Assembly: GCF_009834535.1 (NCBI RefSeq)
Contig: NC_045696.1
Coordinates: 36,458,001 to 36,522,000, forward strand
Source of the DNA: Camelus ferus
Lineage: Eukaryota
Direction: 5' to 3'
DNA length: 64,000 nt
The notes under the pieces were generated by a model that saw only the letters and a program-made list of their open reading frames with translations, was not told where the DNA came from and did no database searches. A program made the position numbers and the translations under genes. Shown here piece by piece: positions 9,990-60,194 of the stretch. Position 1 is the stretch's first letter. Each line of letters opens with the position of its first letter.

Positions 9990-10215
9990 GAATCTGAATG
10001 AAAGTTGCGTTTCTTTGTTATTGAAAAAAAATTTCATCAATTTTTAAAAGGATATATATATAATTCTAAAATTTGATTCAGAAAAGAACTAAATGCTAAT
10101 GTTGAGGAGGGACTTTTTAACATTCATCATGCCTGTCTCCTGCTTAATGCCTACAAAGTAGGGATGATAAAAACCTGGTATATTTCTCTCTTCCCTACCC
10201 ATCAGAAATGCTGTT

Positions 10216-10581
10216 CTTTAAAAAATTTTTTTAATATATTTTTATTGAAGTACAGTCAGTTTACAATGTTGTGTCAATTTCTGGTGTACAGCACAATGCT
10301 TCAGTCACATAGGAACATACATACATTCGTTCTCTTATTCTTCTTCACCATAGGTTACTACAAGATATTGAATATGGTTCCCTGTGCTATACAGTATAAA
10401 CTTGTTGTTTATCAGATTTTGTGGGAGTCTTTCTGGATTTTGGAATGAGAGATACTCTGCCAAAGTTCAGTAGGTGTTCTGTGTGATTCAGTGGGTTTGT
10501 AGATGTAATTCTTGGTGTATTTGTGGAAGAGGGTGAGCTGTGAGTATCTCTACTCCACCATCTTGGCTCCACCCTCCTTTC
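10216..10581 (-). mobile_element. Bipartite mini-L1: L1 5' end (~10413-10577) fused to L1 3' end (~10232-10412); probable retrotransposed spliced L1 RNA
   Basis: 10413-10577 aligns by eye with the first ~160 nt of the full-length L1 (24308-24467); 10232-10412 aligns with the L1 3'UTR at 53698-53870; degenerate TSD candidate CAGAAATGCTGTT (10203-10215) / CATAAATACCGTT (10582-10594). Confidence 0.85.
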
Positions 10582-11409
10582 CATAAATACCGTTAATCAA
10601 ACAATTTGCATTTTTCCAACTGAGCCTGTAACCACTTCTGAATCCTTTAAGAAATATTTGAGAATAAATTAAATGTTATAAAAATAGGTTAAGTCCTCTT
10701 TGTATCCCAGGTTAAGATATCAGAGCAATTCATCAAATGAATACTTAATTTCTGAGTTTATTCCAGATTTATAAAATATTAGCAGTCAAATAGATCTTGG
10801 GGCTTGACAGTACAAAGCTTTAATTTTTCTCAGCATAAATGTTATAAATATTTAGAAGCATTTCCATACTGCTTATTTGGAACATTTTAATCTTGTCTGG
10901 TTCTTAAGTTCTCCCAGGCTTAATCATCTTTCCTTTAATCTGTAATAATGTATATGTATGGAGAATTTAGCTGTCTCTCTTGTTTTATTCCCCATAATCT
11001 CTATTTTTTTCTCCTACCTGGAGTGAGTCAGAAGGCTTATGTCACTGTATATCTGCTCATTTTTTGCCGTAAGTGTCTGAATTCTAGTAGGACATATCTT
11101 GCAGAAATACATATATGCTGTATAAATTCCTTGACTAGGAAAATACATAATTTTATTACCTTCTTATTTTTCCTCATTTCCTTCTGAGTGTGGTTTCAAT
11201 GGATGTAGAGTTTGGAGTTTTAATCCCTGAATTTAATCCCTAAATTCCTAATATTGTACCATTGCAGAAAAGAATATGTCCAGAGTTAGCAACAAAGATC
11301 ATTTAAGGAGCATCTGAATATATTTTAAATACAGTTGTTTGTCATAACATCTGATGAGAACTGCCCACCAAAGTGAAACTCAATTTCTAACGGGAATCTA
11401 TCATTTTTG

Positions 11410-17019: not shown

Positions 17020-17350
17020 TACATTCTGTTTTCCTTTTCTCTGAGTTCATTAATTACTGAATTGAATACTTGGTTTATTTATTTTTATTCTTTGTTTAAA
17101 GTGAAAGCATTTAGATCTATTAATTTTACTCTGAGTACATTTTACTCTGGTTTTCTGGGTGCAGATTTGGCCACATCCCATACATTTTGATATATTATTT
17201 TATTTTATTATACTCTCTTAGTTATTATTTTCCAAAGGGCTCCCAAGGAAGTTTTTATTTCCTCATTGATAAAAGAGTTTGGGAAAATGGTTTTACGTGT
17301 GGTTCTGCATACTGGTTTTAAATAGTGCCCTTCTGCTTATAGTTGAGGAA
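17020..17350 (-). mobile_element. Old L1M ORF2 fragment adjacent to the young L1 insertion site
   Basis: AAGCATTTAGATCTATTAATTTTACTCTGAGTAC and CACATCCCATACATTTTGATAT resemble the L1 segment seen at 20575-20630 and 43670-43730. Confidence 0.5.
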
Positions 17351-17684
17351 TTTTGGGTAAGTTTTTTTTTTTTTAACATTTTTTATTGATTTATAATCAT
17401 TTTACAATGTTGTGTCAAATTCCAGTGTTCAGCACAATTTTTCAGTTATTCATGGACATATACACACTCATTGTCACATTTTTTTCTCTGTGAGTTATCA
17501 TAACATTTTGTGTATATTTCCCTGTGCTATACAGTGTAGTCTATTCTACAATTTTGAAATCCCAGTCTATCCCTTCCCACCCTCCACCCCCCTGGTAACC
17601 ACAAGTCTGTATTCTCTGTCTGTGAGTCTATTTCTGTCCTTTATTTACGCTTTGTTTTTGTTTGTTTGTTTTTGTTTTTGTTTT

Positions 17685-20600
17685 TTAGATTCCACATATG
17701 AGCGATCTCATATGGTATTTTTCTTTCTCTTTCTGGCTTACTTCACTTAGAATGACATTCTCCAGGAGCATCCATGTTGCTGCAAATGGCATTATGTTGT
17801 CGGTTTTTATGGCTGAGTAGTATTCCATTGTATAAATATACCACCTCTTCTTAATCCAGTCACCTGTTGATGGACATTTAGGCTGTTTCCACGTTTTGGC
17901 TATTGTAAATAGTGCTGCTATGAACTTGGGGTGCAGGTGTCATCCTGAAGTAGATTTCCTTCTGGATACAAGCCCAGGAGTGGGATTCCTGGGTCATATG
18001 GTAAGTCTATTCCTAGTCTTTTGAGGAATCTCCACACTGTTTTCCATAGTGGCTGCACCAAACTGCATTCCCACCAGCAGTGTAGGAGGGTTCCCCTTTC
18101 TCCACAGCCTCTCCAGCATTTGTCATTTGTGGATTTTTGAATGACGGCCATTCTGACTGGTGTGAGGTGATAACTCATTGTAGTTTTGATTTGCATTTCT
18201 CTGATAATTAGTGATATTGAGCATTTTTTCATGTGCTTTTTGATCATTTGTATGTCTTCCTTGGAGAATTGCTTGTTTAGGTCTTCTGCCCATTTTTGGA
18301 TTGGGTTGTTTATTTTTTTCTTACTGAGTCGTATGAGCTGCTTATATATTCTGGAGATCAAGCCTTTGTCGGTTTCACTTGCAAAAATTTTCTCCCATTC
18401 CGTAGGTTTTCTTCTTGTTTTATTTCTGGTTTACTTTGCTGTGCAGAAGCTTGTAAGTTTCACTAGGTCCCATTTGTTTATTCTTGCTTTTATTTCTTCT
18501 AGGAGAAAAATTTTTAAATGTATGTCAGATAATGTTTTGCCTATGTTTTCCTCTAGGAGGTTTATTGTATCTTGTCTTATGTTTAAGTCTTTAATCCATT
18601 TTGAGTTGATTTTTGTATATGGTGTAAGGGAGTGTTCTAGCTTCATTGTTTTACATGCTGCTGTCCAGTTTTCCCAACACCATTTGCTGAAGAGACTGTC
18701 TTTATTCCAATGTATATTCTTGCCTCCTTTGTCGAAGATGAGTTGACCAAAAGTTTGTGGGTTCATTTCTGGGCTCTCTATTCTGTTCCATTGGTCTATA
18801 TGTCTGTTTTGGTACCAATACCATGCTGTCTTGATGACTGTAGCTCTATAGTATTGTCTGAAGTCTGGGAGAGTTATTCCTCCAGCCTCTTTCTTTCTCT
18901 CCAGTTAAGCTTTGGCAATTCTAGGTCTTTGATGGTTCCATATGAATTTTATTATGATTTTTTCTAGTTCTGTGAAATATGTCCTGGGTAATTGGATAGG
19001 GATTGCATGAAATCTGTAGATTGCCTTGGGCAGTGTGACCATTTTAACAATATTGATTCTTCCAATCCAAGAGCATGGAATATCTTTCCATTTTTTTTAG
19101 TCTTCTTTAATTTCCTTCATCAATGGTTTATAGTTTTCTGTGTATAATTCTTTCACCTCCTTGGTTAGATTTATTCCCAGATATTTTATTACTTTGGGTG
19201 CTATTTTAAAGGGGATTGTTTCTTTACTTTCTTCTTCTGTTGATTTATCGTTAGTGTAAAGAAATGCAACTGATTTTTGAACGTTAATTTTGTAACCTGC
19301 TACCTTGCTGAATTCTTCAATCAGCTCTAGTAGCTTTTGTGTGGACCTTTTAGGGTTTTCTATATATAGTAACATGTCGTCGGCATATAATGATACTTTT
19401 ACCTCTTCTTTTCCAATTTGGATCCCTTTTATTTCTTTCTCTTGCCTGACTGCTGTGGCTAGGACTTCCAGGACTATGTTGAATAGGAGTGGTGATAGTG
19501 GGCATCCTTGTCTTGTCCCAGATTTTAGTGGGAAGCTTTTGAGTTTTTCACCGTTGAGTACTATGCTGGCTGTAGGTTTGTCATATATAGCTTTTATTAT
19601 GTTGAGATATGTTCCCTCTATACTCACTTTGGCGAGAGTTTTTATCATAAATGGGTGTTGAATTTTATCAAATGCTTTTTCTGCATCGATTGAGATGATC
19701 ATGTGGTTTTTGTTCTTTCTCTTGTTGATGTGATGTATTACACTGATTGATTTGTGTGTGTTGAACCAGCCTTGTGTCCCTGGGATGAACCCCACTTGGT
19801 CATGATGTATAATCTTTTTTATGTGTTGTTGGATTCTATTTGCTAAAATTTTGGTGAGGATTTTGGCGTCTATGTTCATCAGTGATATTGGCCTATAATT
19901 CTCTTTTTTTGTAGTGTCTTTGCCTGGTTTTGGTATCAGGGTGATGGTGGCTTCATAGAATGAGTTTGGGAGTATTCCCTCCTTTTCAATCGTCTGGAAG
20001 AGTTTGAGAAGGACTGGTATGAGTTCTTCTTTGTATGTTTGGTAGAATTCCCTGGTGAAGCCGTCCAGTCCTGGACTTTTATTTGTAGGGAGGTTTTTAA
20101 TTGCTATTTCTATTTCCTTTCTAGTGATCGGATTGTTCAAGTGTTCAGATTCTTCTTGATTCAGTTTTGGTGGACAGTATGTTTCCAGAAACTTGTCCAT
20201 CTCCTCTAGGTTATCCAGTTTGGTTCCATATAGTTTTTCATAATATTCTCGTATGATATTCTGTGTTTCTATTTTGTTTGTTGTAATTTCTCCATTTTCC
20301 TTTCTTATTTTGCTAATTTGTGCTCTCTCTTTTTTCTTCTTTGTGAGTTTGGCCAGAGGTTTGTCGATTTTATTTACTTTTTCAAAAAACCAGCTTTTGG
20401 TTTGGTTGATTTTTTCTATGGTCTTGTTAATCTCTATTGTATTTAATTCCTCTCTGATCTTTATTATTTCCTTCCTTCTGCTGCTTTTTGGGGCTTTTTG
20501 TTCTTCTTTTTCTAATTCATTCAGGTGGTGGGTTAAATTGTTTATTTGAGATTGTTCTTTTTTGAGGAAGGCCTGTATCGCTATAAACTTCCCTCTTAGC

Positions 20601-21478
20601 ACTGCCTTTGCTGTGTCCCATAGGTTTTGAGTGGTTGTGCTTTCATTATCATTTGTCTCAAGGTATTTTTTAATTTCAGCTTTGATTTCCTCATTGATCC
20701 ATTGTTTTTTCAATAACATACTGTTTAATCTCCATGCTTTTCTTTTTTTCTCCTTTGTTTCTCTGTTGTTGATTTCCAGTTTCATGGCATTGTGGTCAGT
20801 AAAGATGCTTGAGATAATTTCTATCTTCTTAAAATTGTTGAGGTTTCTTTTGTGTCCGAATACATGATCGATCCTGGAAAATGTTCCATGTGCACTTGAA
20901 AAGAATGTATATCCTATTTTTTGGGGGTGTAATGCTCTGAAAATATCCACCAAATCTAGTTTTTCTATTGTAGTATTTAATTTCTCTGTTGCCTTGTTTA
21001 TTTTCTGTCTGGAAGATCTGTCTAGTGATGTTAATGCAGTGTTAAAATCTCCAACTACGATTGTATTCCCATCAATATCCCCCTTTATCTCTGTTAGTAA
21101 TTCTTGTATGTACTTAGGTGCTCCTATATTGGGTGCATATATATTAACGAGTGTAATATCCTCATCTTGTATCACTCCTTTAATCATTATAAAATGTCCT
21201 TCTTTATCTTTCTTTATGGCCTTTGTTTTAAAGTCTATTTTGTCTGAAATCAGTACTGCAACACCTGCTTTTTTGGCTTCTCCATTTGCATGGAATATCC
21301 TTTTCCATCCTTTCACTCTCAATCTATATGTGTCCTTCTCCCTAAAGTGGGTCTCTTGTATGCAGCATATTGAAGGTTCTTGCTTTATTATCCAGTCTGC
21401 CACTCTGTGTCTTTTGACTGGAGCATTTAGTCCATTAACATTTACAGTAATTAATGATAGATGTGTGTTTATTGCCAT
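17685..21478 (-). pseudogene. L1 ORF2 (APE endonuclease, reverse transcriptase, C-terminal Cys-rich domain), disabled
   Basis: [18 protein letters not shown] start at 21478; EN motifs QETH, GDFN, DHN; RT motifs QGCPLSP, YADD, YLGI; in-frame stops at 19097-19099, 18905-18907 and 18431-18433 plus a 1-bp deletion near 17926 (TCTP-MFIAALF); native stop at 17685. Confidence 0.95.
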
Positions 21479-21882
21479 TTTGAACTTAACTTTGCAGTTG
21501 AATTGGTATATCCTCTTTGTCCTTTCTTCTTCCTTTTGTGGTTTGGTAATTTTCCTTTGTATTATCATGGATTTCATTTAATTTTTGTGACTCCTTTGTA
21601 AATTTTTGGCTTGTGGTTACCCTTTTTTGTAAATCTATCAACCCATTACTAGAACTGTTTTTATTAAACTGATAGTAACATGATCTCAAACCCATCCTAC
21701 TGTTAAAAAAAATTTAAAAAAGAAAGAAAAAAATATTCTGTATTTCCCTGCCTCCCTCTCCCACTCTCAGTGATTTGTATGTCTTCTTTAATAATTTCAT
21801 GTTTACTTTATTTGTAATTCATGAGTTATCACCTTTCCAGTTGTGTGTTTCTCATTTCTGTAGCATCCTGCTGCTTTTCTAT

Positions 21883-22786
21883 TTAGAATAGCCCTTTCAA
21901 TATTTCTTTTAGCATGGGTTTAGTGTTGCTAAACTCCTGCAGCTTTTTTTTGTCTGTGAAACTCTTTATTTCTCCTTCTATCCTCAAGGATAGCCTTGCT
22001 GGATAAAGGATCCTAGGCTGCATCTTTTTTTCATTCAGGGCTTTGAATATATCTTGCCACTCCCTTCTGGCCTGTAGTGTTTGTGTAGAGAAATCAGCTG
22101 AGAGCCTTATGGGGGGTTCCCTTGTAGCTTACTCTTTGCTTTTCTCTTGCTGCCTTTAGAATCATTTCTTTATCCTTGACTCTGGCCATCTTGATTATGA
22201 TATGTCTTGGTGTGGGTCTATTTGGGTTCTTCCTGTTTGGGACCCTCTGAGCTTCCTGTACTTGGATATCTGATTCCTTCTTTAAGTTTGGGAAGTTTTC
22301 AGTCATGATTTCTTCAAAAACCTTTTCAATCCCCTTTGATCTTTCTTCTCCTTCTGGGACCCCTATTATGTGAAGATTGGGATGCTTTATATTATCCCAT
22401 AGGTCCCTTATGCTATTTTCATTATTTTTTATTTGCTTCTCTTGTAGTTCTTCTGAATGGGTGCTTTCTATTGCCCTGTCTTCTAGATCACTAATTCGCT
22501 CCTCTGCATTATCTAGTCGGCTTTGCACAGCTATTAGATCATTCCTCATCTCTGTCAATGAGTTTACCCATTCTACTTGGCTCTTCTTTATAGCTTCAAT
22601 TTCATTTTTGACATATTTTATATCTCTAAACACTATCTCTTTTAATTCCTTCAGCAATTCGATCACTCCTTTTTTGAAATCTTGATCTAGTAGGCTATTG
22701 ATGTCTATTTCATTGATCTTTCTTTCAGGGGATTTCTCTTGTTGTTTTAATTGGGAAAGGTTTTTCTGCTTCTTCATCTTGCTCAT
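21883..22786 (-). pseudogene. L1 ORF1 (coiled-coil/RRM/CTD RNA chaperone, ~300 aa) with a +1 frameshift
   Basis: RLDNAEERISDLED, NLHIIGVPE, ENFPNL, PTPRHIIIK motifs; one extra base in the G6 run at 22111-22116 interrupts KGTP-IRLSADFS; the shifted frame reads ...ARREW...YPARL... to TAA at 21883. Confidence 0.93.
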
Positions 22787-23289
22787 ACCTCTTTGGCACT
22801 GTGGTTTATGGAGTATCAGTTGTTTATTTTGGTCCTTAAGGATTTTATCTATCTAATGCCTATTTAGGAATAGAACTTAGGAAAAAAAGAAAAAAAAATA
22901 AGAGAGAGAAAGAATTTTAAAAGAAGGGAGAAAGAGGGTTTGAAAACAGTGTAAAATGAATAATAGAAGAGTGAGTTGAAGCAGAGTATTAATCGGGTTG
23001 AGACGTCCTTTTAAAACCTTTACAAAAAAAGGGGGGGGGAGATGAATAGATGTATTTGAAACCTGTGTCTAATCAATAGCAGGACATCAAAACCCAAGAG
23101 AAATAGAAATGAATTAAGAAGTAAAAATTAAGAGAGTAATAGAAAATAGAACAGGTAAAAACAGATTTAAAAAAAAAAGGGGGGGGGGGTGGTTTGTCGG
23201 TGTTCTCCTGGAGTCTGTGTGCTTTTAATGTGAAGTCTTCCTGTCTTCGTCCTGTTTTGGAAGCTCAGCTTGCTGTTTTCAGAGGCCCT

Positions 23290-24467
23290 CCGTTGGCGCC
23301 CTCTTCTGTGCTGCTCCCAGCACCTGTCGGCAAGCTGATCGCGCCTCTTCCTAACACTGGGTCAGGTGCAGCTCTCTGCTGTGGGCGGGCGGGTCGCTGC
23401 CCCTCCGGATGCCGCACTCAGATGTTGCAGACTGGCCAGGTAGGAGGGCGGGTCGTGCCCCCTCCCAGCACCTTGGTCAGGGGCTGTGTTCCTGCCCTAA
23501 AGGCGGGGGGGCGGGGGGCCGCTCTCCCTCTACCTGCGCCGCCGGTAGTTCCGCTCTCTGTGCGGCTGCGCGCTCCGTCCTGGTCGGCGCTCCGCAGGTG
23601 GGCTCCGGGAAGACGGAGGGACAGCCCTGTCCCTGCTCCGAGCCAAAACCCAGTTCCTTGTTTGTCTTTGTGGAGCAAGTTCTCTGAGGGACCAGGGTGT
23701 AAGGATCCTATCTGCCACGGGCTGCAGGCCAGTCTCAGTCTGGCCTTTGAGGCTGCTAAGCCCGTCCGTGCGGATGCAGGTTTCGCCCCGCCCCCGCCTG
23801 GGTGCTAAGCGCGGAGGATATGGCGGCTGTGCTTGAGCCCCGCCTCTCTTCCCCCGGAAACCTTTCCTCGGGTTTTCAGAGATGGGGGTGTGCACCCTTC
23901 CCCCGAGAGCACATCAACCTTGCTGTTTTATGGAGGGCCCAGGTTGTTCTGCCCTGTGCACCCACAGCCACGGCGCGCAGCCCCCAGCAGTCCCTCGGGG
24001 CTGCCTCTGTGCAGCCGCCCCCGTCCTCCGCCCGGCTTGTGCAGCCTGGCCCTGCCCGCCGCTGCCGGCCCGCATCTCAGGCTGGGTGTCGGGGGGACGC
24101 TCTGTGCCCGTTTAACTTAGTTCTGTTAGTCAAGGGCTGCTCTGTACAGATCCGAGCCTCGGAGGCTCCCCCTCCGTCCCGCTGGCCTCTCAGTTGGAGA
24201 GGGGAGACCCAGCGAGCGAGCGCCAGTCCTCCTTTGCCGCTCCCTCCCCGCGGGACCCGTCCCGCGCTGCTTTGCCTTTTGTTCTTTCTTTTTTCCTTTT
24301 CTCCTACCAGATTTTTGGCGTCTTTATCTTTTGAAGAGGGCGATGTTCTGTCGGAGTTCCGCAGGTGCTCTGGTTGGCTGAGTGGGTCTGTAGATGTGGG
24401 TCTTGGTGTATTTGTGGGAGAGGATGTACCTGCGAGCGTCCTTCTACTCCGCCATCTTCTCCCTCCC
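23290..24467 (-). promoter_or_regulatory. L1 5'UTR CpG island / internal promoter
   Basis: Abrupt GC- and CpG-rich block; YY1-type site CCGCCATCTT at 24449-24458; GC boxes CGCCCCGCCCCCGCC at ~23784-23798. Confidence 0.85.
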
Positions 24468-43254: not shown

Positions 43255-46200
43255 ATTTTTTTATTGTGGTAAAATACATATAATATAAAATTATCTTATC
43301 CATTTTTAAGGGTTCAGTTTGGCATCATTAAATACATTCATATTGCTGTGCAGCTGTCACCACCATCCACTGCCGGTTGTAATGTCTTCTGTTTCACTTT
43401 TGATTTCATATATTTGAGTTTTTTCTCTTTTTTTCTGAATTGGTCTAGCTATACCTTTGTCAATTTTGTTTCGAAAAAAACAACCTGTAGTTCCATTGAC
43501 TTTTCTAATGGCTATCTAGTTTCTATTTCATTTATTTCTGCTCTGATCTTTGTTATATTCTTCCTTCTACTAACTTTGGGCTTAGTTTGTTCTTATTTTT
43601 CTAGTTCTTATTTTCTAGGTGTAAACTTAGGTTGTTATTTGAGATCTTTATTTTTTCTTATAGGTGTTTATTGCTATAAACTTCACTCTTGGAACTGCTT
43701 TTGCTTCATCCCATAAGTTTTGGTATGGTGTTCTTACATTTTTGTTTGTCTCAAGATATTTTTTAATTTCTTATTTGATTTCTTTGACTCATTGGTTGTT
43801 CAGAGGTGTGTTTTTTAATCTCCACATATTTAAAATTTTCAAATTTTCCTCCCTTTATATTAATTTCTAGTTTCATACCATTGTGATCGCAAACAGCTTG
43901 ACATGATTTCACTCTTTAAATTTATTGACTTGTTTTGTGGCCTAACACTTGATCTATCCTTTTGAATCTTTGTGCATGCTTGAGAAAAATGTATATTCTG
44001 TCATTATTACATGGAATTTTCTGTATATGTCTGTTATATCCATTTGATCTACAGTGTAGTTCAAATCCAGTGTTTCCTTATTGAATTTTTGTCTGGATGA
44101 TCTATCTGTTGTTGAAAGGGGATATTGAAGTCCTCTGCTACAAATGTATTGCTGTTTATTTCTCCCTTCATATCTGTTAATATTTGCTGTTATACTTAAG
44201 TGCTTCAATGTTAGGTACATAAATATTTACAATTGTCATATCTTCTTGAAGAATTGCCCCTTTTATCATTATATAATGATCTTCTTTGTCTCTTGCTACA
44301 ATTTTGATTTAAAGTCTACTTTTTCTGATTTAAATATAGCTGCCTTACTCTCTTTTGGTTTTTATTTTCATAAAATATTTACTTTTCATACTTTTGTTTT
44401 TAGTCTATGTGTAAAATGCATCTCTTGAAGGCAGTATATAGTAGGTTATTTTCTTTTTTTTTTTTTTTAAATCCATTCAGCCACTCTATATTTTGGATTG
44501 GAGAATTTAGGCTATTTATATTTAAAGTGAATATTGATAGGTGGGGGCTAACTATTGCCATTTATTTAATTGTTTCCTGGATGTTTTGTAGGTCCTTTGT
44601 TCCTTGCTTACTCTATTGCTGTCTCCCTTTATGCTTTGATGATTTTCTGCTGTGATTTCTTTCTCTTTATCTTTTGTGTATTTACTATAAATTTTGGCTT
44701 TGTAGTTATCATGAGGCTTAAGTAAACATTTTATAGTTATAAAAGTCTATTTTAAGCTGATAACAACTTAACTTCAAATGCATACAAAAGCTGTACATTT
44801 TTACACTCCCCTATTTTGTGTTTTTGATGTTGTAATTTATATCTTTTTGTATTATGTATCCACTAACAAGTTATTGTAGCTATAGGTATTTTTTAATACT
44901 TTTGCCTTTAACCTTTATACTAGAGGTAAAAGTGATTTACATACTACCATTACAATATTATTCTGAATTTGATTATATATCTACCTTTACCAGTGAGTCT
45001 TATACTTTTATATTACTAATTAGCACCCTTTGTTTCAGCTTGAAGAACTCCCTTTAGCATTTCTTATAAGGCAAGTCTACTGGTGATGAACTCCTTCAGC
45101 CTTTTTTTTTTGCCAGGGGGTGTCTAGAAAAATCTTTCTCTCTCCTTCAAATCTGAAGACAACATTGCTGGGCAAAGTATTCGTGGTTGGATGTTTTTTA
45201 TCTCAGCCCCTTAAATATACCTTGCCACTCTGTTCTGGCCTGCTGGGTTTCTGCTCATTGGTTCCCTTGCAGGCAACAAAGTGCCTTTTTCTTGTTGCTT
45301 TCAAAACTCTGTTTTTTTCTTTAAATTTAGACAACTTGATTACAATGTATCCTAGGGTGGGTCTCTGTGGATTCATCTTATTGAAATTTTTTTGTTGTTG
45401 TTGTTTCCTGGATTTGTATGTTTACTTCTTTCTCCAGATTTGGAAGTTTTCAGTCATTATTTCTCTGAATAAGCTTTTTGCCACTTTCTCTCTCCATCCT
45501 CTTTCTGGGACTTCTATATTGCATATACTTCTTCCATTGATAGTGTGCCATAAGTCCCTTGTGCTTTCTTTACTCTATTTCATTCTTTTTTCTTTTTGCT
45601 TCTCTGATTGGGTGGTTTTCACTGACCTGTCTTCAAGTTTGCTGATCCTTTCTTCTGTTTGCTCTAGTCTATTGTTTGAATCCTTCTATTGAATATTTCA
45701 GTTCCATTATTTTAGTCACCAGCTTTATGACTTTGGTTTCGTTCTCATTTATATTTTCTATTTCTTTGTTAAAATTCTCACTTTGTTCATCCATTGCTTT
45801 CCTGATTTCAGTAAACATCTTTATGACTCATTTTGAATCCTCTCTCTTGGATAAATCACTTGTCTCCTTTTCATTAAAGTCAGTTGCTAGAGATTTATCT
45901 TGTTCTTTTGTTTGGAACATAGTCTCCTATTTCTTCATTTTCTTGACTCTCTGTTGGTTTCTTTGCATTACATGAAATAACTACCTCTTCCAGTGTTGAA
46001 AGACCAGCTTCACGTGAAAAATAAAGCTTGTCAATTGGCCTGGACTGAGAAACTGGGTGCTTCTTACACCTTTGTGTTTGTTCAAATTGCTATCTTTGTT
46101 CTTAGTGGCCCTAGGAGATTTGTGTGTGCCAAGTCCTGTCACTGCACAGAAGGTGGAGAAAATGCCTACAATCCCGTTCAGACTCGCAGAGGACTACTAA

Positions 46201-47205
46201 TTGCCTGCCCTGTCAGATCCCAAATGCATGTTAATTGGAAGCTAAACTTTTAGGCAGCAGCTGGGAAAGTCAGAATGTTAGATATGCAGTCTAGCCTCTA
46301 TCAGGGAGAAACTAGGAACCAGGTTTTTTTGTTTACTTGTTTTGTGTTAAGCCTGTAGTAATAGCGACTGGGACTGATTGTGTAACAACATAAAACTTCA
46401 TCTTTGTTCCCTTTGGTCCTGGGGGACTTGTAAATGCCAAGTCCTGTTAGTTCCCAGAATTAGGTGATCTAGGAGCTAGCAGGTAGCAGTTGTAGAAGTT
46501 GGGGCAATAGATGTATGAGCTAGATTCTTCTAGGTAAAGCTGGAGACATGGTTTTATCTTTGGATTAAGCCTAGGGAAGAAGGTGTGGGAAATGCCCACA
46601 GACACTTTCAGGCTCCAAGAGAAGCCCAGTGAGCTCCCAGATGCAGGCTGATTAGAAGCACAACCCTTAGGAAGCAGCTGGAAAATACGTAGTCAAATCC
46701 CTTCCTAGGAGGAACTGGGAGCTGGGTATTTTTGCCTGCTCCCTCTGTTCTGAGCCTGTGGGAGTAGCTGTGAGAGGTGCTCATGAGCCCATTTAAAAAC
46801 CCACTGTTTTTTTCTGTGCTACTGGGGAACTTACAAATGCTGAGCCCTGTTGGCTCTCAGAGCTGGGTGAGTTCCAAGCCAGTCCTCAGGTGGCAGTCAT
46901 AAAAGTTGAGGCACTAGTTCTGTGTTCCAAACCCTTTACTTCTCAGGGAGAAGCTGGGCATCGGAAATTCCCCACTGATTGTAAGGTACTGTGCAGGTGG
47001 TGGGATTTATGGTGTGAGCATGTCTCCACTTGTCCTACACACTTCAATGTGGGTTATTTTCTCAGCTGCCTGATGTGTAGGAGTCAGTCAACTAGTTTCT
47101 GCATTTATTTCAGAGGGAATTAATCCTTATTTAGCTGTTTATTTGGTGTATTCCATGGGAGGAGGGAGAGACAAGAGCCTGATATTCCATTCTCTTGCTA
47201 ATGTC
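43255..47205 (-). mobile_element. Old L1M element: 5'UTR, decayed ORF1, ORF2 endonuclease region, then abrupt jump to the last ~120 bp of an L1 3' end
   Basis: 5' end-like ATTCCATTCTCTTGCTAATGTC ~47185; ORF1 relic ~45050-45960; ORF2 ATG at 44561 (MAIVSPHLSIFTLNINSLNSPI); EN relic DRSSRQKFNKE, EYTFFSS; junction at ~43373 to L1MA/MB-type 3' end. Confidence 0.85.
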
Positions 47206-53666: not shown

Positions 53667-54168
53667 TTTTCTTTTTCTTTTTTTTGGTATATATATATTT
53701 TTTATTGAAGTATAGTCAATTTACAATGTTGTGTCAATCTCTGGTATAGCACAATGCTTCAGTCATACATGAACATACATATATTTGTTTTCATATTCTT
53801 TTTCACCATAAGTTACTACAAGATACTGAATATAGTTCCCTGCGCTATACAGCATGAACTTGTTGTTTATCTAGTCTGTATATATGTGTATATATATCAG
53901 CTAGTATCTTCAAATGTCTAACTCTCAATTTATCCCCTCTCACCGCCCTTCCCCCTAGTAACCACAAATTTGTTCTCTATATCTGAGATCTGTTTCTATT
54001 TTGCAAATAAGTTCATTTGTCTTTTTTTTAAGATTCCACATATAAGTGATATATGGTATTTTTCTTCTCTTTCTGGCTTATTTCACTTAGAATGACAATC
54101 TCTAAGTCCATCCATGTTGCTGCAAATGGCATTATTTTATTATTTTTTATGGCTGAGTAGTATTCCAT

Positions 54169-54206
<38 letters not shown>

Positions 54207-54290
54207 CACCACAACTTCTTTATCCCATCATCTGTCGATGGACATTTAGATTGTTTCCATGTCTTGGCTACCGTAAATAGTGCTGCCATT
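53667..54290 (-). mobile_element. 5'-truncated L1 (ORF2 C-terminus plus 3'UTR)
   Basis: Clearly homologous to 17375-17920 (TTCACTTAGAATGACA, TCCATGTTGCTGCAAATGGCATTAT, TTTATGGCTGAGTAGTATTCCATTG); T-rich tail at ~53667-53685. Confidence 0.93.
54168..54206 (+). repeat. (TG)n(TA)n compound microsatellite inside L1
   Basis: Direct observation. Confidence 0.9.
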
Positions 54291-59240: not shown

Positions 59241-60194
59241 CCTATCCTTCTGGAAGGAAAGTAGGCTGGGGAATGGTAAATTGATACATTGTGGGGACTG
59301 TGGAGTTAGGGATGATATACAAGAGTCAGAAAATAGGAAGTTTATTGGAGAATTATTGGTGCTTAAGAAAGGCCATTGAAAGTCAACCCAATTTAAAAGC
59401 AGATCAAACTCTTATAATAAATTGTTAAAAAATGTAATGGCACTTTATCTTAAAAAATGAAAAAAAATTCTTATATTCAATTTATATCTGAATAACAAAA
59501 CTATTCTAAGTAGGGAACAAGGAGTGTTTTTCCCTTGGTATGATGTTCCTGACTAAACTGTCACATATAATTACTTCATGTGTGGCTTTTGCAGATCATC
59601 ATTTAGAGTATCATTTTACAAAATTATTCAACAGTTTTTCCAAAGCTTCTCTAGGTTCTTTGATATTCAGACTATTTCCTTTTAAATTTCAAATTGTGTT
59701 ATCATCCTTGCTGACCTCTCTTCTTTGACTGCTGGATATATAGACTGCCCATTTCCTAATTTGATAATGATTCTTATGATTCAAGCAATCTCCAATGTCA
59801 CTCTCATTAGTTTCATGAAATTTTGCTTATTATGCTAGAAATTCAATATCTTTTAAAAATACTTCATATTATATTTGTATTGTAGACCTATACTCAATGA
59901 AATACTGTCACAAGGCAAAAATGTTGAACTTAAGAGCCATTAAGAAGGAGGAATGTTTGAATAGAAACCCAATAAGCGATCCGTTTATTGTGTAAGATTT
60001 TATATTATTCTTCCCACTACAGCTTTGGACAGTGAACACTCAGATGAGAGTTATCTCCTATGTATTTTTGAATTGACCTGCTTTCCTGCCTATTTTTAAC
60101 TTGGGTCACCTGGGTCACCAATAATTCTCTGACTCCTGTACATCATCCCTAATTCCACAGGGAATTAAAACTCCTTAATAAAAACACCTCCTTT

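Follow-up and report, generated by a model that had tools for sequence, protein, structure and literature searches.

How does an L1 element come to consist of little more than its own two ends, and how does such a remnant multiply? This question is raised by a 366-base insert in the 64,000-nucleotide stretch of Camelus ferus DNA analyzed here (contig NC_045696.1, positions 36,458,001 to 36,522,000; hereafter the window). Read on the minus strand, the insert runs from the start of an L1 5ʹ UTR directly into the end of an L1 3ʹ UTR; its longest ATG frame has 21 codons, and no open reading frame (ORF) is left. In humans, retrocopies of spliced L1 RNA, termed SpIREs, are reported for L1PA1-6 and account for 131 of 6,609 full-length L1s, or ~2% (Larson et al. 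2018, PMC5860796). A preliminary description of the window proposed that both ORFs had been spliced out of an L1 RNA and that the product might represent a self-propagating, Pol II-driven family acting like a SINE. The parts of the insert (hereafter the mini) and the two L1 copies to which it was compared are the following:

10216-10581, minus strand: the insert, 366 bases, L1 5ʹ-UTR start joined to L1 3ʹ-UTR end
10413-10581, minus strand: exon 1, the first ~169 bases of the L1 5ʹ UTR, ending at the decayed donor CpG
10550-10561, minus strand: 3-codon reading frame within exon 1
about 10556-10565, in exon 1: CAAGATGG motif, which we take to be YY1-site-like
G10413/A10412, minus strand: splice junction between exon 1 and the 3ʹ-UTR exon, at an identical position in 123/123 copies collected
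10241-10412, minus strand: last exon, the final ~170 bases of the L1 3ʹ UTR, carrying 3ʹ variants of one L1 sub-lineage
10241-10246, minus strand: AATAAA, inside the last exon
10216-10240, minus strand: decayed A-rich tail
10582-10594, minus strand: upstream copy of a degenerate 13-bp target site duplication (TSD), 10/13 match to 10203-10215
10203-10215, minus strand: downstream copy of the TSD
53667-54290, minus strand: 5ʹ-truncated L1 of the parent type, with acceptor AG at 53872-53871 and a mutated branch motif, TACTAGC, at 53906-53900
17350-24467, minus strand: near-full-length L1 with long open frames kept, of a sister lineage and not the parent

Self-BLAST of the window aligns positions 10410-10564 with an L1 5ʹ end at 74% identity and positions 10234-10413 with the L1 3ʹ fragment at 53667-54290 at 88% identity. 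The landmarks named in the preliminary description lie where it placed them: the junction at 10413/10412 on the minus strand, the GT at 24307-24306 of the long L1, the AG at 53872-53871 of the 3ʹ fragment, and the AATAAA (10246-10241) followed by the A-rich tail (10216-10240). Its 13-bp TSD survives in part. The 10/13 match is real, and the score of 7.5 is weak against mismatched flank pairs, 15% of which reach 7. The mini RNA shows no unusual predicted fold (z -0.67), and a structured-RNA reading was dropped for that reason. Elsewhere in the window lie an older L1 remnant with an internal repeat (43376-46917, 64-68% identical) and a 37-base inverted repeat (59298-60160).

The mini is not alone. 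A search of the 2.09-Gb assembly with a junction query of 80 bases returned 172 candidates; the best 40 of these, which were scored, all span both sides of the junction (40/40), and the loci fetched from this search are without exception whole elements of ~350 bp with the identical junction (30/30). Further copies came from patterns for the end of exon 1 that left the next base free. The pattern for TG ends gave 99 matches, all inspected, consisting of 41 minis and 58 unspliced ends; the pattern for CA and CG ends gave 113 matches, and among the 100 listed were 62 confirmed minis and 36 that read GTAAG. Three of 22 junction-pattern matches (L160, L164, and L171) were dropped as not minis. One of them, L160, holds at about position 1400-1500 a U6/L1 chimera, in which a sequence that is presumably U6-snRNA-like is joined to a short L1 3ʹ end.

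Altogether, the searches yielded 123 distinct minis, sharing a single junction position and having A (116), G (5), T (1), or C (1) as the first base after it. The multi-copy family guessed at from one copy is thereby confirmed, and its junction is neither unique nor variable, being shared by all 123 copies, most of them with a TSD of their own. TSD scores reach at least 8 in 39 of the 59 minis tested, compared with 5% of mismatched flank-pair controls, and A-rich tails are present, which together with TSDs are a hallmark of SpIRE insertion. In matched counts, exon 1 of the minis ends in TG 28 times, CA 31 times, and CG 28 times. This is the pattern of a decayed CpG; the parental donor was accordingly CCG/GT, and the CTG of the window copy is a decayed form of it. 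A first estimate of ~80 copies was rejected, as the initial patterns caught only the TG third of these ends. By recapture, 10 of 19 minis from an acceptor-side search recurred in the exon-1-pattern lists for the TG class, giving an estimate of ~78 copies for that class and ~230 minis overall. A sequencing-run index provides a lead only: 16 of the 24 runs listed contain at least half of the locus words, including two RNA rows and rows of two organisms; RNA data of this kind would not tell new splicing from read-through of genomic copies.

The junction coincides with splice signals in the parent L1 lineage. Among unspliced exon-1 ends of the parents, GT occupies +1/+2 in 51/58 and GTAAGA is found in 30/58, so that the consensus, CCG/GTAAGA, is a strong donor. 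The weak pyrimidine tract mentioned as a caveat in the preliminary description is a true feature of the acceptor, which is almost without one, and is offset by a TACTAAC branch-point consensus at -24 to -20, present in 23/30 unspliced 3ʹ ends with the branch A ~19 bases upstream. Full-length parents have 6.3-6.8 kb between donor and acceptor; the loss of ~6.5 kb bounded by GT...AG, first deduced from other copies, is therefore true of the actual parents, whose consensus lacks neither site (GT in 51/58, AG with branch point in 23/30). The break falls exactly at GT..AG in 116/123 minis, and G>A at +1 is equally frequent in unspliced copies (6/58). Seven one-off internal deletions were also checked, none of which has GT..AG.

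Judging from its genomic copies, the parent L1 acts as a pre-mRNA of three exons whose two introns contain ORF1 and ORF2, respectively. Exon 2 is a 47-base segment between the two ORFs; a long pyrimidine tract and AG lie before it in 30/32 parents, and GT follows it, in register, in 22/31. Retrocopies were found for all four splice forms of this model:

exon 1-exon 3: the mini, 123 copies
exon 1-exon 2-exon 3: L271, a three-exon mini
exon 1-exon 2-ORF2: L274 and L276, ORF2-only, lacking ORF1 entirely and the 5ʹ UTR for the most part
ORF1-exon 2-exon 3: L121, L275, L282, and L365, with the inter-ORF donor joined to the 3ʹ-UTR acceptor, ORF1-only and HAL1-like

The exon 2-exon 3 junction, with zero shared bases, resolves the uncertainty of one base that the mini junction leaves. 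Additionally, a third donor, located 267 bases downstream within the 5ʹ UTR and reading GT in 30/44 parents, joins the mini acceptor in L363. The 3ʹ-UTR acceptor is thus used by three donors, those of exon 1, the inter-ORF segment, and the distal 5ʹ UTR. With the parental splice signals, the full isoform set, and one-off deletions that are not of the GT..AG type, the splicing origin of the mini is essentially shown, as near as genomic sequence allows. The proposal that both ORFs were spliced out is strongly supported by the canonical donor, the branch point, the three donors meeting one acceptor, and the presence of all isoforms.

Two other kinds of shortened copy were seen in the same searches. 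A HAL1-like form of ~3.2 kb, in which the 5ʹ UTR and ORF1 are kept, occurs at 6 of 53 long loci (L092, L100, L130, L131, L139, and L141). Its junction (near position 3090 of L131) is one common microhomology and not GT..AG, three of its copies have clear TSDs, and the recurrence of this non-splice junction suggests a propagating family. At about position 1500, L044 and L057 contain ~200-base insertions of the L1 5ʹ end alone, with duplications on both flanks; these stop in an A-rich run just past the donor and were perhaps primed on that internal A-run.

The long L1 of the window (17.4-24.5 kb), from which the preliminary description took its reference donor, was rejected as the parent of the mini. 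It belongs to a sister lineage whose donor reads GTAGGA against the parental GTAAGA and which has no mini junctions: 643 unspliced exon-1 ends of this type were matched compared with 0 joins to the 3ʹ exon, and the junction was found at 0/30 loci examined. The window copy of this lineage has the homologous donor GT (24307-24306), a pyrimidine-rich acceptor just before ORF1 (22877-22876), and no branch motif at its 3ʹ site. At 8 of the 30 loci examined (L210, L214, L219, L220, L227, L232, L237, and L239), the sister-lineage donor is joined to this pre-ORF1 acceptor, the intron being 1,432 bases in the window's L1; these copies are conventional intra-5ʹ-UTR SpIREs. In L218, sister-lineage exon 1 is joined to a site ~630 bases downstream. 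The window copy lies 4.5% from its group, and the sister lineage is likely, from such sequence distances, to be younger than the parent lineage. Its loss of the mini product might represent an escape from splicing, which we offer as a hypothesis because the group is mixed (3.8-18%).

Whether the minis arose repeatedly or from one another can be asked of the variants they carry. On this point, the suggestion of a self-propagating Pol II-driven family fared poorly. The copies track several full-length L1 sub-lineages without fixed private mutations and with no clear excess of rare variants in common, and no mini-wide diagnostic site emerged. Majority bases of minis and parents agree at 159/161 and 169/172 columns, variants occur at similar frequencies, and no fixed private mini site was found in comparison with unspliced copies; for the 3ʹ exon, six parents whose 3ʹ type differs were not used here. 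Variants of the 5ʹ and 3ʹ parts are linked in the 123 minis (p 4e-7 to 5e-6), and the same linkage is present in 34 parents (p 0.004-0.03). Among 86 rows, two rare 3ʹ variants of the window copy recur in no more than three further minis and a single full-length L1. A pattern for these variants has 122 exact matches, of which 28 of the 30 inspected lie outside minis, so that the variants mark an L1 sub-lineage from which separate minis arose. In a star-like tree built from 58 minis and 28 parents, there is no mini clade (weak support, bootstrap unsettled) and mini labels are slightly clustered, with 18 label changes compared with a shuffled mean of 23.8. There are 35 mini pairs with at least three common rare variants (null 34.5) and 8 with at least four (null mean 4.0, null maximum 8), the latter count being 4 against 0.5 in a smaller set. 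Furthermore, no 3ʹ transduction between minis was seen, as no flank is common in register among 59 copies.

Divergence gives a more mixed picture. Minis are less diverged than 5ʹ-intact unspliced copies (non-CpG 5.4% versus 7.1%, p 0.001), also within the 3ʹ exon (5.5% versus 6.9%, p 0.009; versus 6.5% for generic 3ʹ ends, p 0.07). They also retain more CpG (141/513, 27%, versus 57/335, 17%). When the two groups were matched for selection, within the TG class only, the values are 9.0% and 9.4% (p 0.64), which is no difference. The larger comparison of divergence and variants left out five mis-cut or other-type rows, and both it and the CpG comparison excluded rows above 17-20% divergence. The lower divergence and higher CpG retention would each be explained by later sub-lineages splicing more often or by a little secondary spread. 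One 3ʹ-exon site, ~44 bases past the junction (~10368 in the window), reads A>G in 28/123 minis compared with 8/89 unspliced copies; this is unexplained. The change is spread over all haplotypes with no linkage to any, and a general A>G excess of the kind expected from editing was not seen in the minis (2.8% versus 2.6%). On balance, the variant data lean to mini copies being dead ends for further rounds. Among the unspliced copies, L148, L149, and L150 are three near-identical 5ʹ ends for which segmental duplication is probable, and 5ʹ-intact unspliced copies seem concentrated on one contig (C37, 14/56 matches), with minis more evenly spread.

How much of the RNA was spliced can be approached from the acceptor side, where 1,187 unspliced matches, which include related subfamilies, were found for 19 TG-class minis. 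This is 1.6%, or ~5% if the TG class is one third of the family. About half of the 5ʹ-complete insertions of the parent lineage are minis; of its insertions as a whole, the estimate is 2-5%. The former share would be explained if copying usually runs through a 350-base RNA completely but seldom through one of 7 kb; on the same grounds, RNA levels can hardly be read from the finding that the 99 TG-class ends include no other acceptor. In cultured cells, an ORF1-defective SpIRE is reported to be rescued in trans only at a low level (Larson et al. 2018, PMC5860796), and LAVA reporters reach 0.02-4.7% of the cis rate, the lowest not above plain mRNA (PMC5174737). If such rates held, the spliced RNA would have been at least as abundant as full-length RNA or else an unusually favored substrate, a step that carries cell-line numbers over to an ancient germline.

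Probably, then, the insert represents an extreme SpIRE, a retrocopy of L1 RNA that was spliced repeatedly in several full-length sub-lineages and mobilized in trans by intact L1s. The L1 RNA carried a GT donor ~170 bases into its 5ʹ UTR and an AG acceptor ~170 bases before its poly(A) signal, and skipping of exon 2 takes out both ORFs in one splice. The capped, polyadenylated product of ~350 bases would be noncoding and, because the mini encodes nothing, would need both ORF1p and ORF2p in trans. Reinsertion likely happened many separate times, from several L1 sub-lineages, and most mini copies would have been dead ends. The family, its fixed junction, the parental splice signals, the other splice forms, and the haplotypes common with full-length L1s are direct observations; the trans step would follow by analogy with human cell assays (PMC5860796, PMC5174737). 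A spliced origin could also be combined with SINE-like spread, a good share of the copies then stemming from earlier minis transcribed by Pol II from the retained 5ʹ end. We regard this as unlikely. It would fit the lower divergence and better CpG retention of the minis relative to unspliced 5ʹ-intact copies, the slight excess of pairs with four or more common rare variants, the high yield for an RNA needing both proteins in trans, and a report of a human SpIRE turned source via a host promoter (10.1101/2025.02.02.635956). However, a fixed private site is absent, haplotypes mirror several full-length sub-lineages, pairs with three or more common rare variants match the null (35 versus 34.5), no flank is common in register between 59 copies, and a few hundred copies is far below SINE scale. 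Moreover, weak promoter activity is described for human SpIREs in which no more than the first 97 bases are kept (PMC5860796).

Very unlikely, in our judgment, is that the same splice took place after the full-length RNA had already been bound by the L1 proteins it encodes (for instance, on its return to the nucleus), so that the short RNA was copied in cis and no large spliced pool was needed. Splicing normally precedes export and translation, which counts against this order of events. The SpIRE model likewise places splicing before translation (PMC5860796), even though copying in cis would account for the estimated 2-5% insertion share despite trans rates of 0.02-4.7% of cis for LAVA (PMC5174737). 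It is extremely improbable that no splicing occurred and that the mini reflects a deletion or a template switch by reverse transcriptase at short imperfect homology, whether inherited or recurring. One common G at the junction, a common TAA just after it, and the G at +1 in 5/123 copies could be read in this way, and such deletions are common in the lineage, where one junction recurs at 6/53 long loci. Yet the break sits precisely at GT..AG in 116/123 copies, unspliced copies show G>A at +1 just as often (6/58), the predicted RNA fold is unremarkable (z -0.67), and independent origins are seen in several sub-lineages. Three donors and three acceptors, all canonical, together with a doubly joined copy and an exon 2-exon 3 junction without a common base complete a set of isoforms that, at the level of sequence, largely refutes deletion or template switching.

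As a repeatedly formed and probably trans-mobilized retrocopy, the mini is closest to the human SpIREs, with which it shares a donor near the 5ʹ-UTR start, a TSD, a poly(A) tail, and repeated origin across autonomous L1 subfamilies with conserved donor and acceptor; in both, the splice pattern shifts as the L1 sequence changes (PMC5860796). In contrast, the human classes described there have their acceptor in the 5ʹ UTR or ORF1 and keep ORF2, whereas the mini uses a 3ʹ-UTR acceptor, has lost both ORFs, and measures ~350 bases. Without ORF2, it falls outside the described SpIRE classes. Its parent also differs from human SpIRE sources in having a cassette exon between the ORFs and four isoforms, and its frequency, about half of 5ʹ-complete insertions, differs from the ~2% of full-length L1s reported for human SpIREs. 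ORF-less bipartite LINEs are listed only for RTE, Ingi, Vingi, and R2, arising from internal deletion, in the available text of Kojima 2018 (PMC5786205). Like RIME, NARTc, Bov-A, and the Vingi and R2 derivatives, the mini consists of the two ends of a LINE without any ORF, is presumably transcribed by Pol II, and would depend on an autonomous partner; unlike them, it comes from L1, by splicing, and its copies do not act like one spreading lineage. HAL1 is likewise a nonautonomous L1 derivative with both ends but keeps ORF1 (PMC5786205, PMC13756887), of which the mini retains nothing. The parent lineage has two HAL1-like forms of its own, one with the microhomology junction (6/53 loci) and one spliced and ORF2-less (4 loci), and the spliced, ORF1-only retrocopies indicate that some HAL1-like elements can arise by splicing.

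SINEs resemble the mini in being short, noncoding, A-tailed, TSD-flanked, and L1-dependent. Unlike them, the mini has no small-RNA head, no Pol III B box, and no master-lineage signature, and it numbers a few hundred copies. A head of the tRNA, 7SL, 5S, or snRNA type was rejected: an Rfam search of the mini gave two chance-level matches only (E 0.28 and 0.38), neither near the gathering score, no tRNA was found in the window, and the head is L1 5ʹ UTR. No B-box match was present in 58 copies, in which the sole loose A-box-like match lies in the 3ʹ exon. The private diagnostic mutations of a SINE master copy were not found in the minis, although a minor contribution of this kind is possible. 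A survey of camelid repeats puts SINEs at ~1.6% of the genome, nearly all of them MIRs, and its available text mentions no such mini (PMC8605555). In the literature searched, which reaches poorly into subscription journals, no ORF-less spliced L1 family and no SpIREs outside primates were found.

The mini extends SpIREs beyond primates, where none were found in that literature, and to their limit, at which all L1 coding capacity has been spliced away. It is a ready precursor for the bipartite route from LINE to SINE. Rather unlikely, in our view, is that the ORF-less isoform went further and became a Pol II-driven parasite that was copied about as efficiently as a SINE, was transcribed anew from the 170-base start it had kept, outlived its parents, and drove a successor lineage to lose the 3ʹ branch point; were this true, L1 would have given rise to its first ORF-less bipartite family, and splicing to a SINE-like element. 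The minis also offer a small set of clean presence/absence markers. Together, the ORF1-only, ORF2-only, three-exon, and two-exon retrocopies constitute a fossil transcriptome of an extinct L1. If trans-mobilization was as poor in this lineage as it is in human cells, an insertion share of 2-5% implies that much of its RNA was lost to splicing. Splicing would then have been a measurable brake on L1, and the loss of the mini in the sister lineage would be a testable escape from it.
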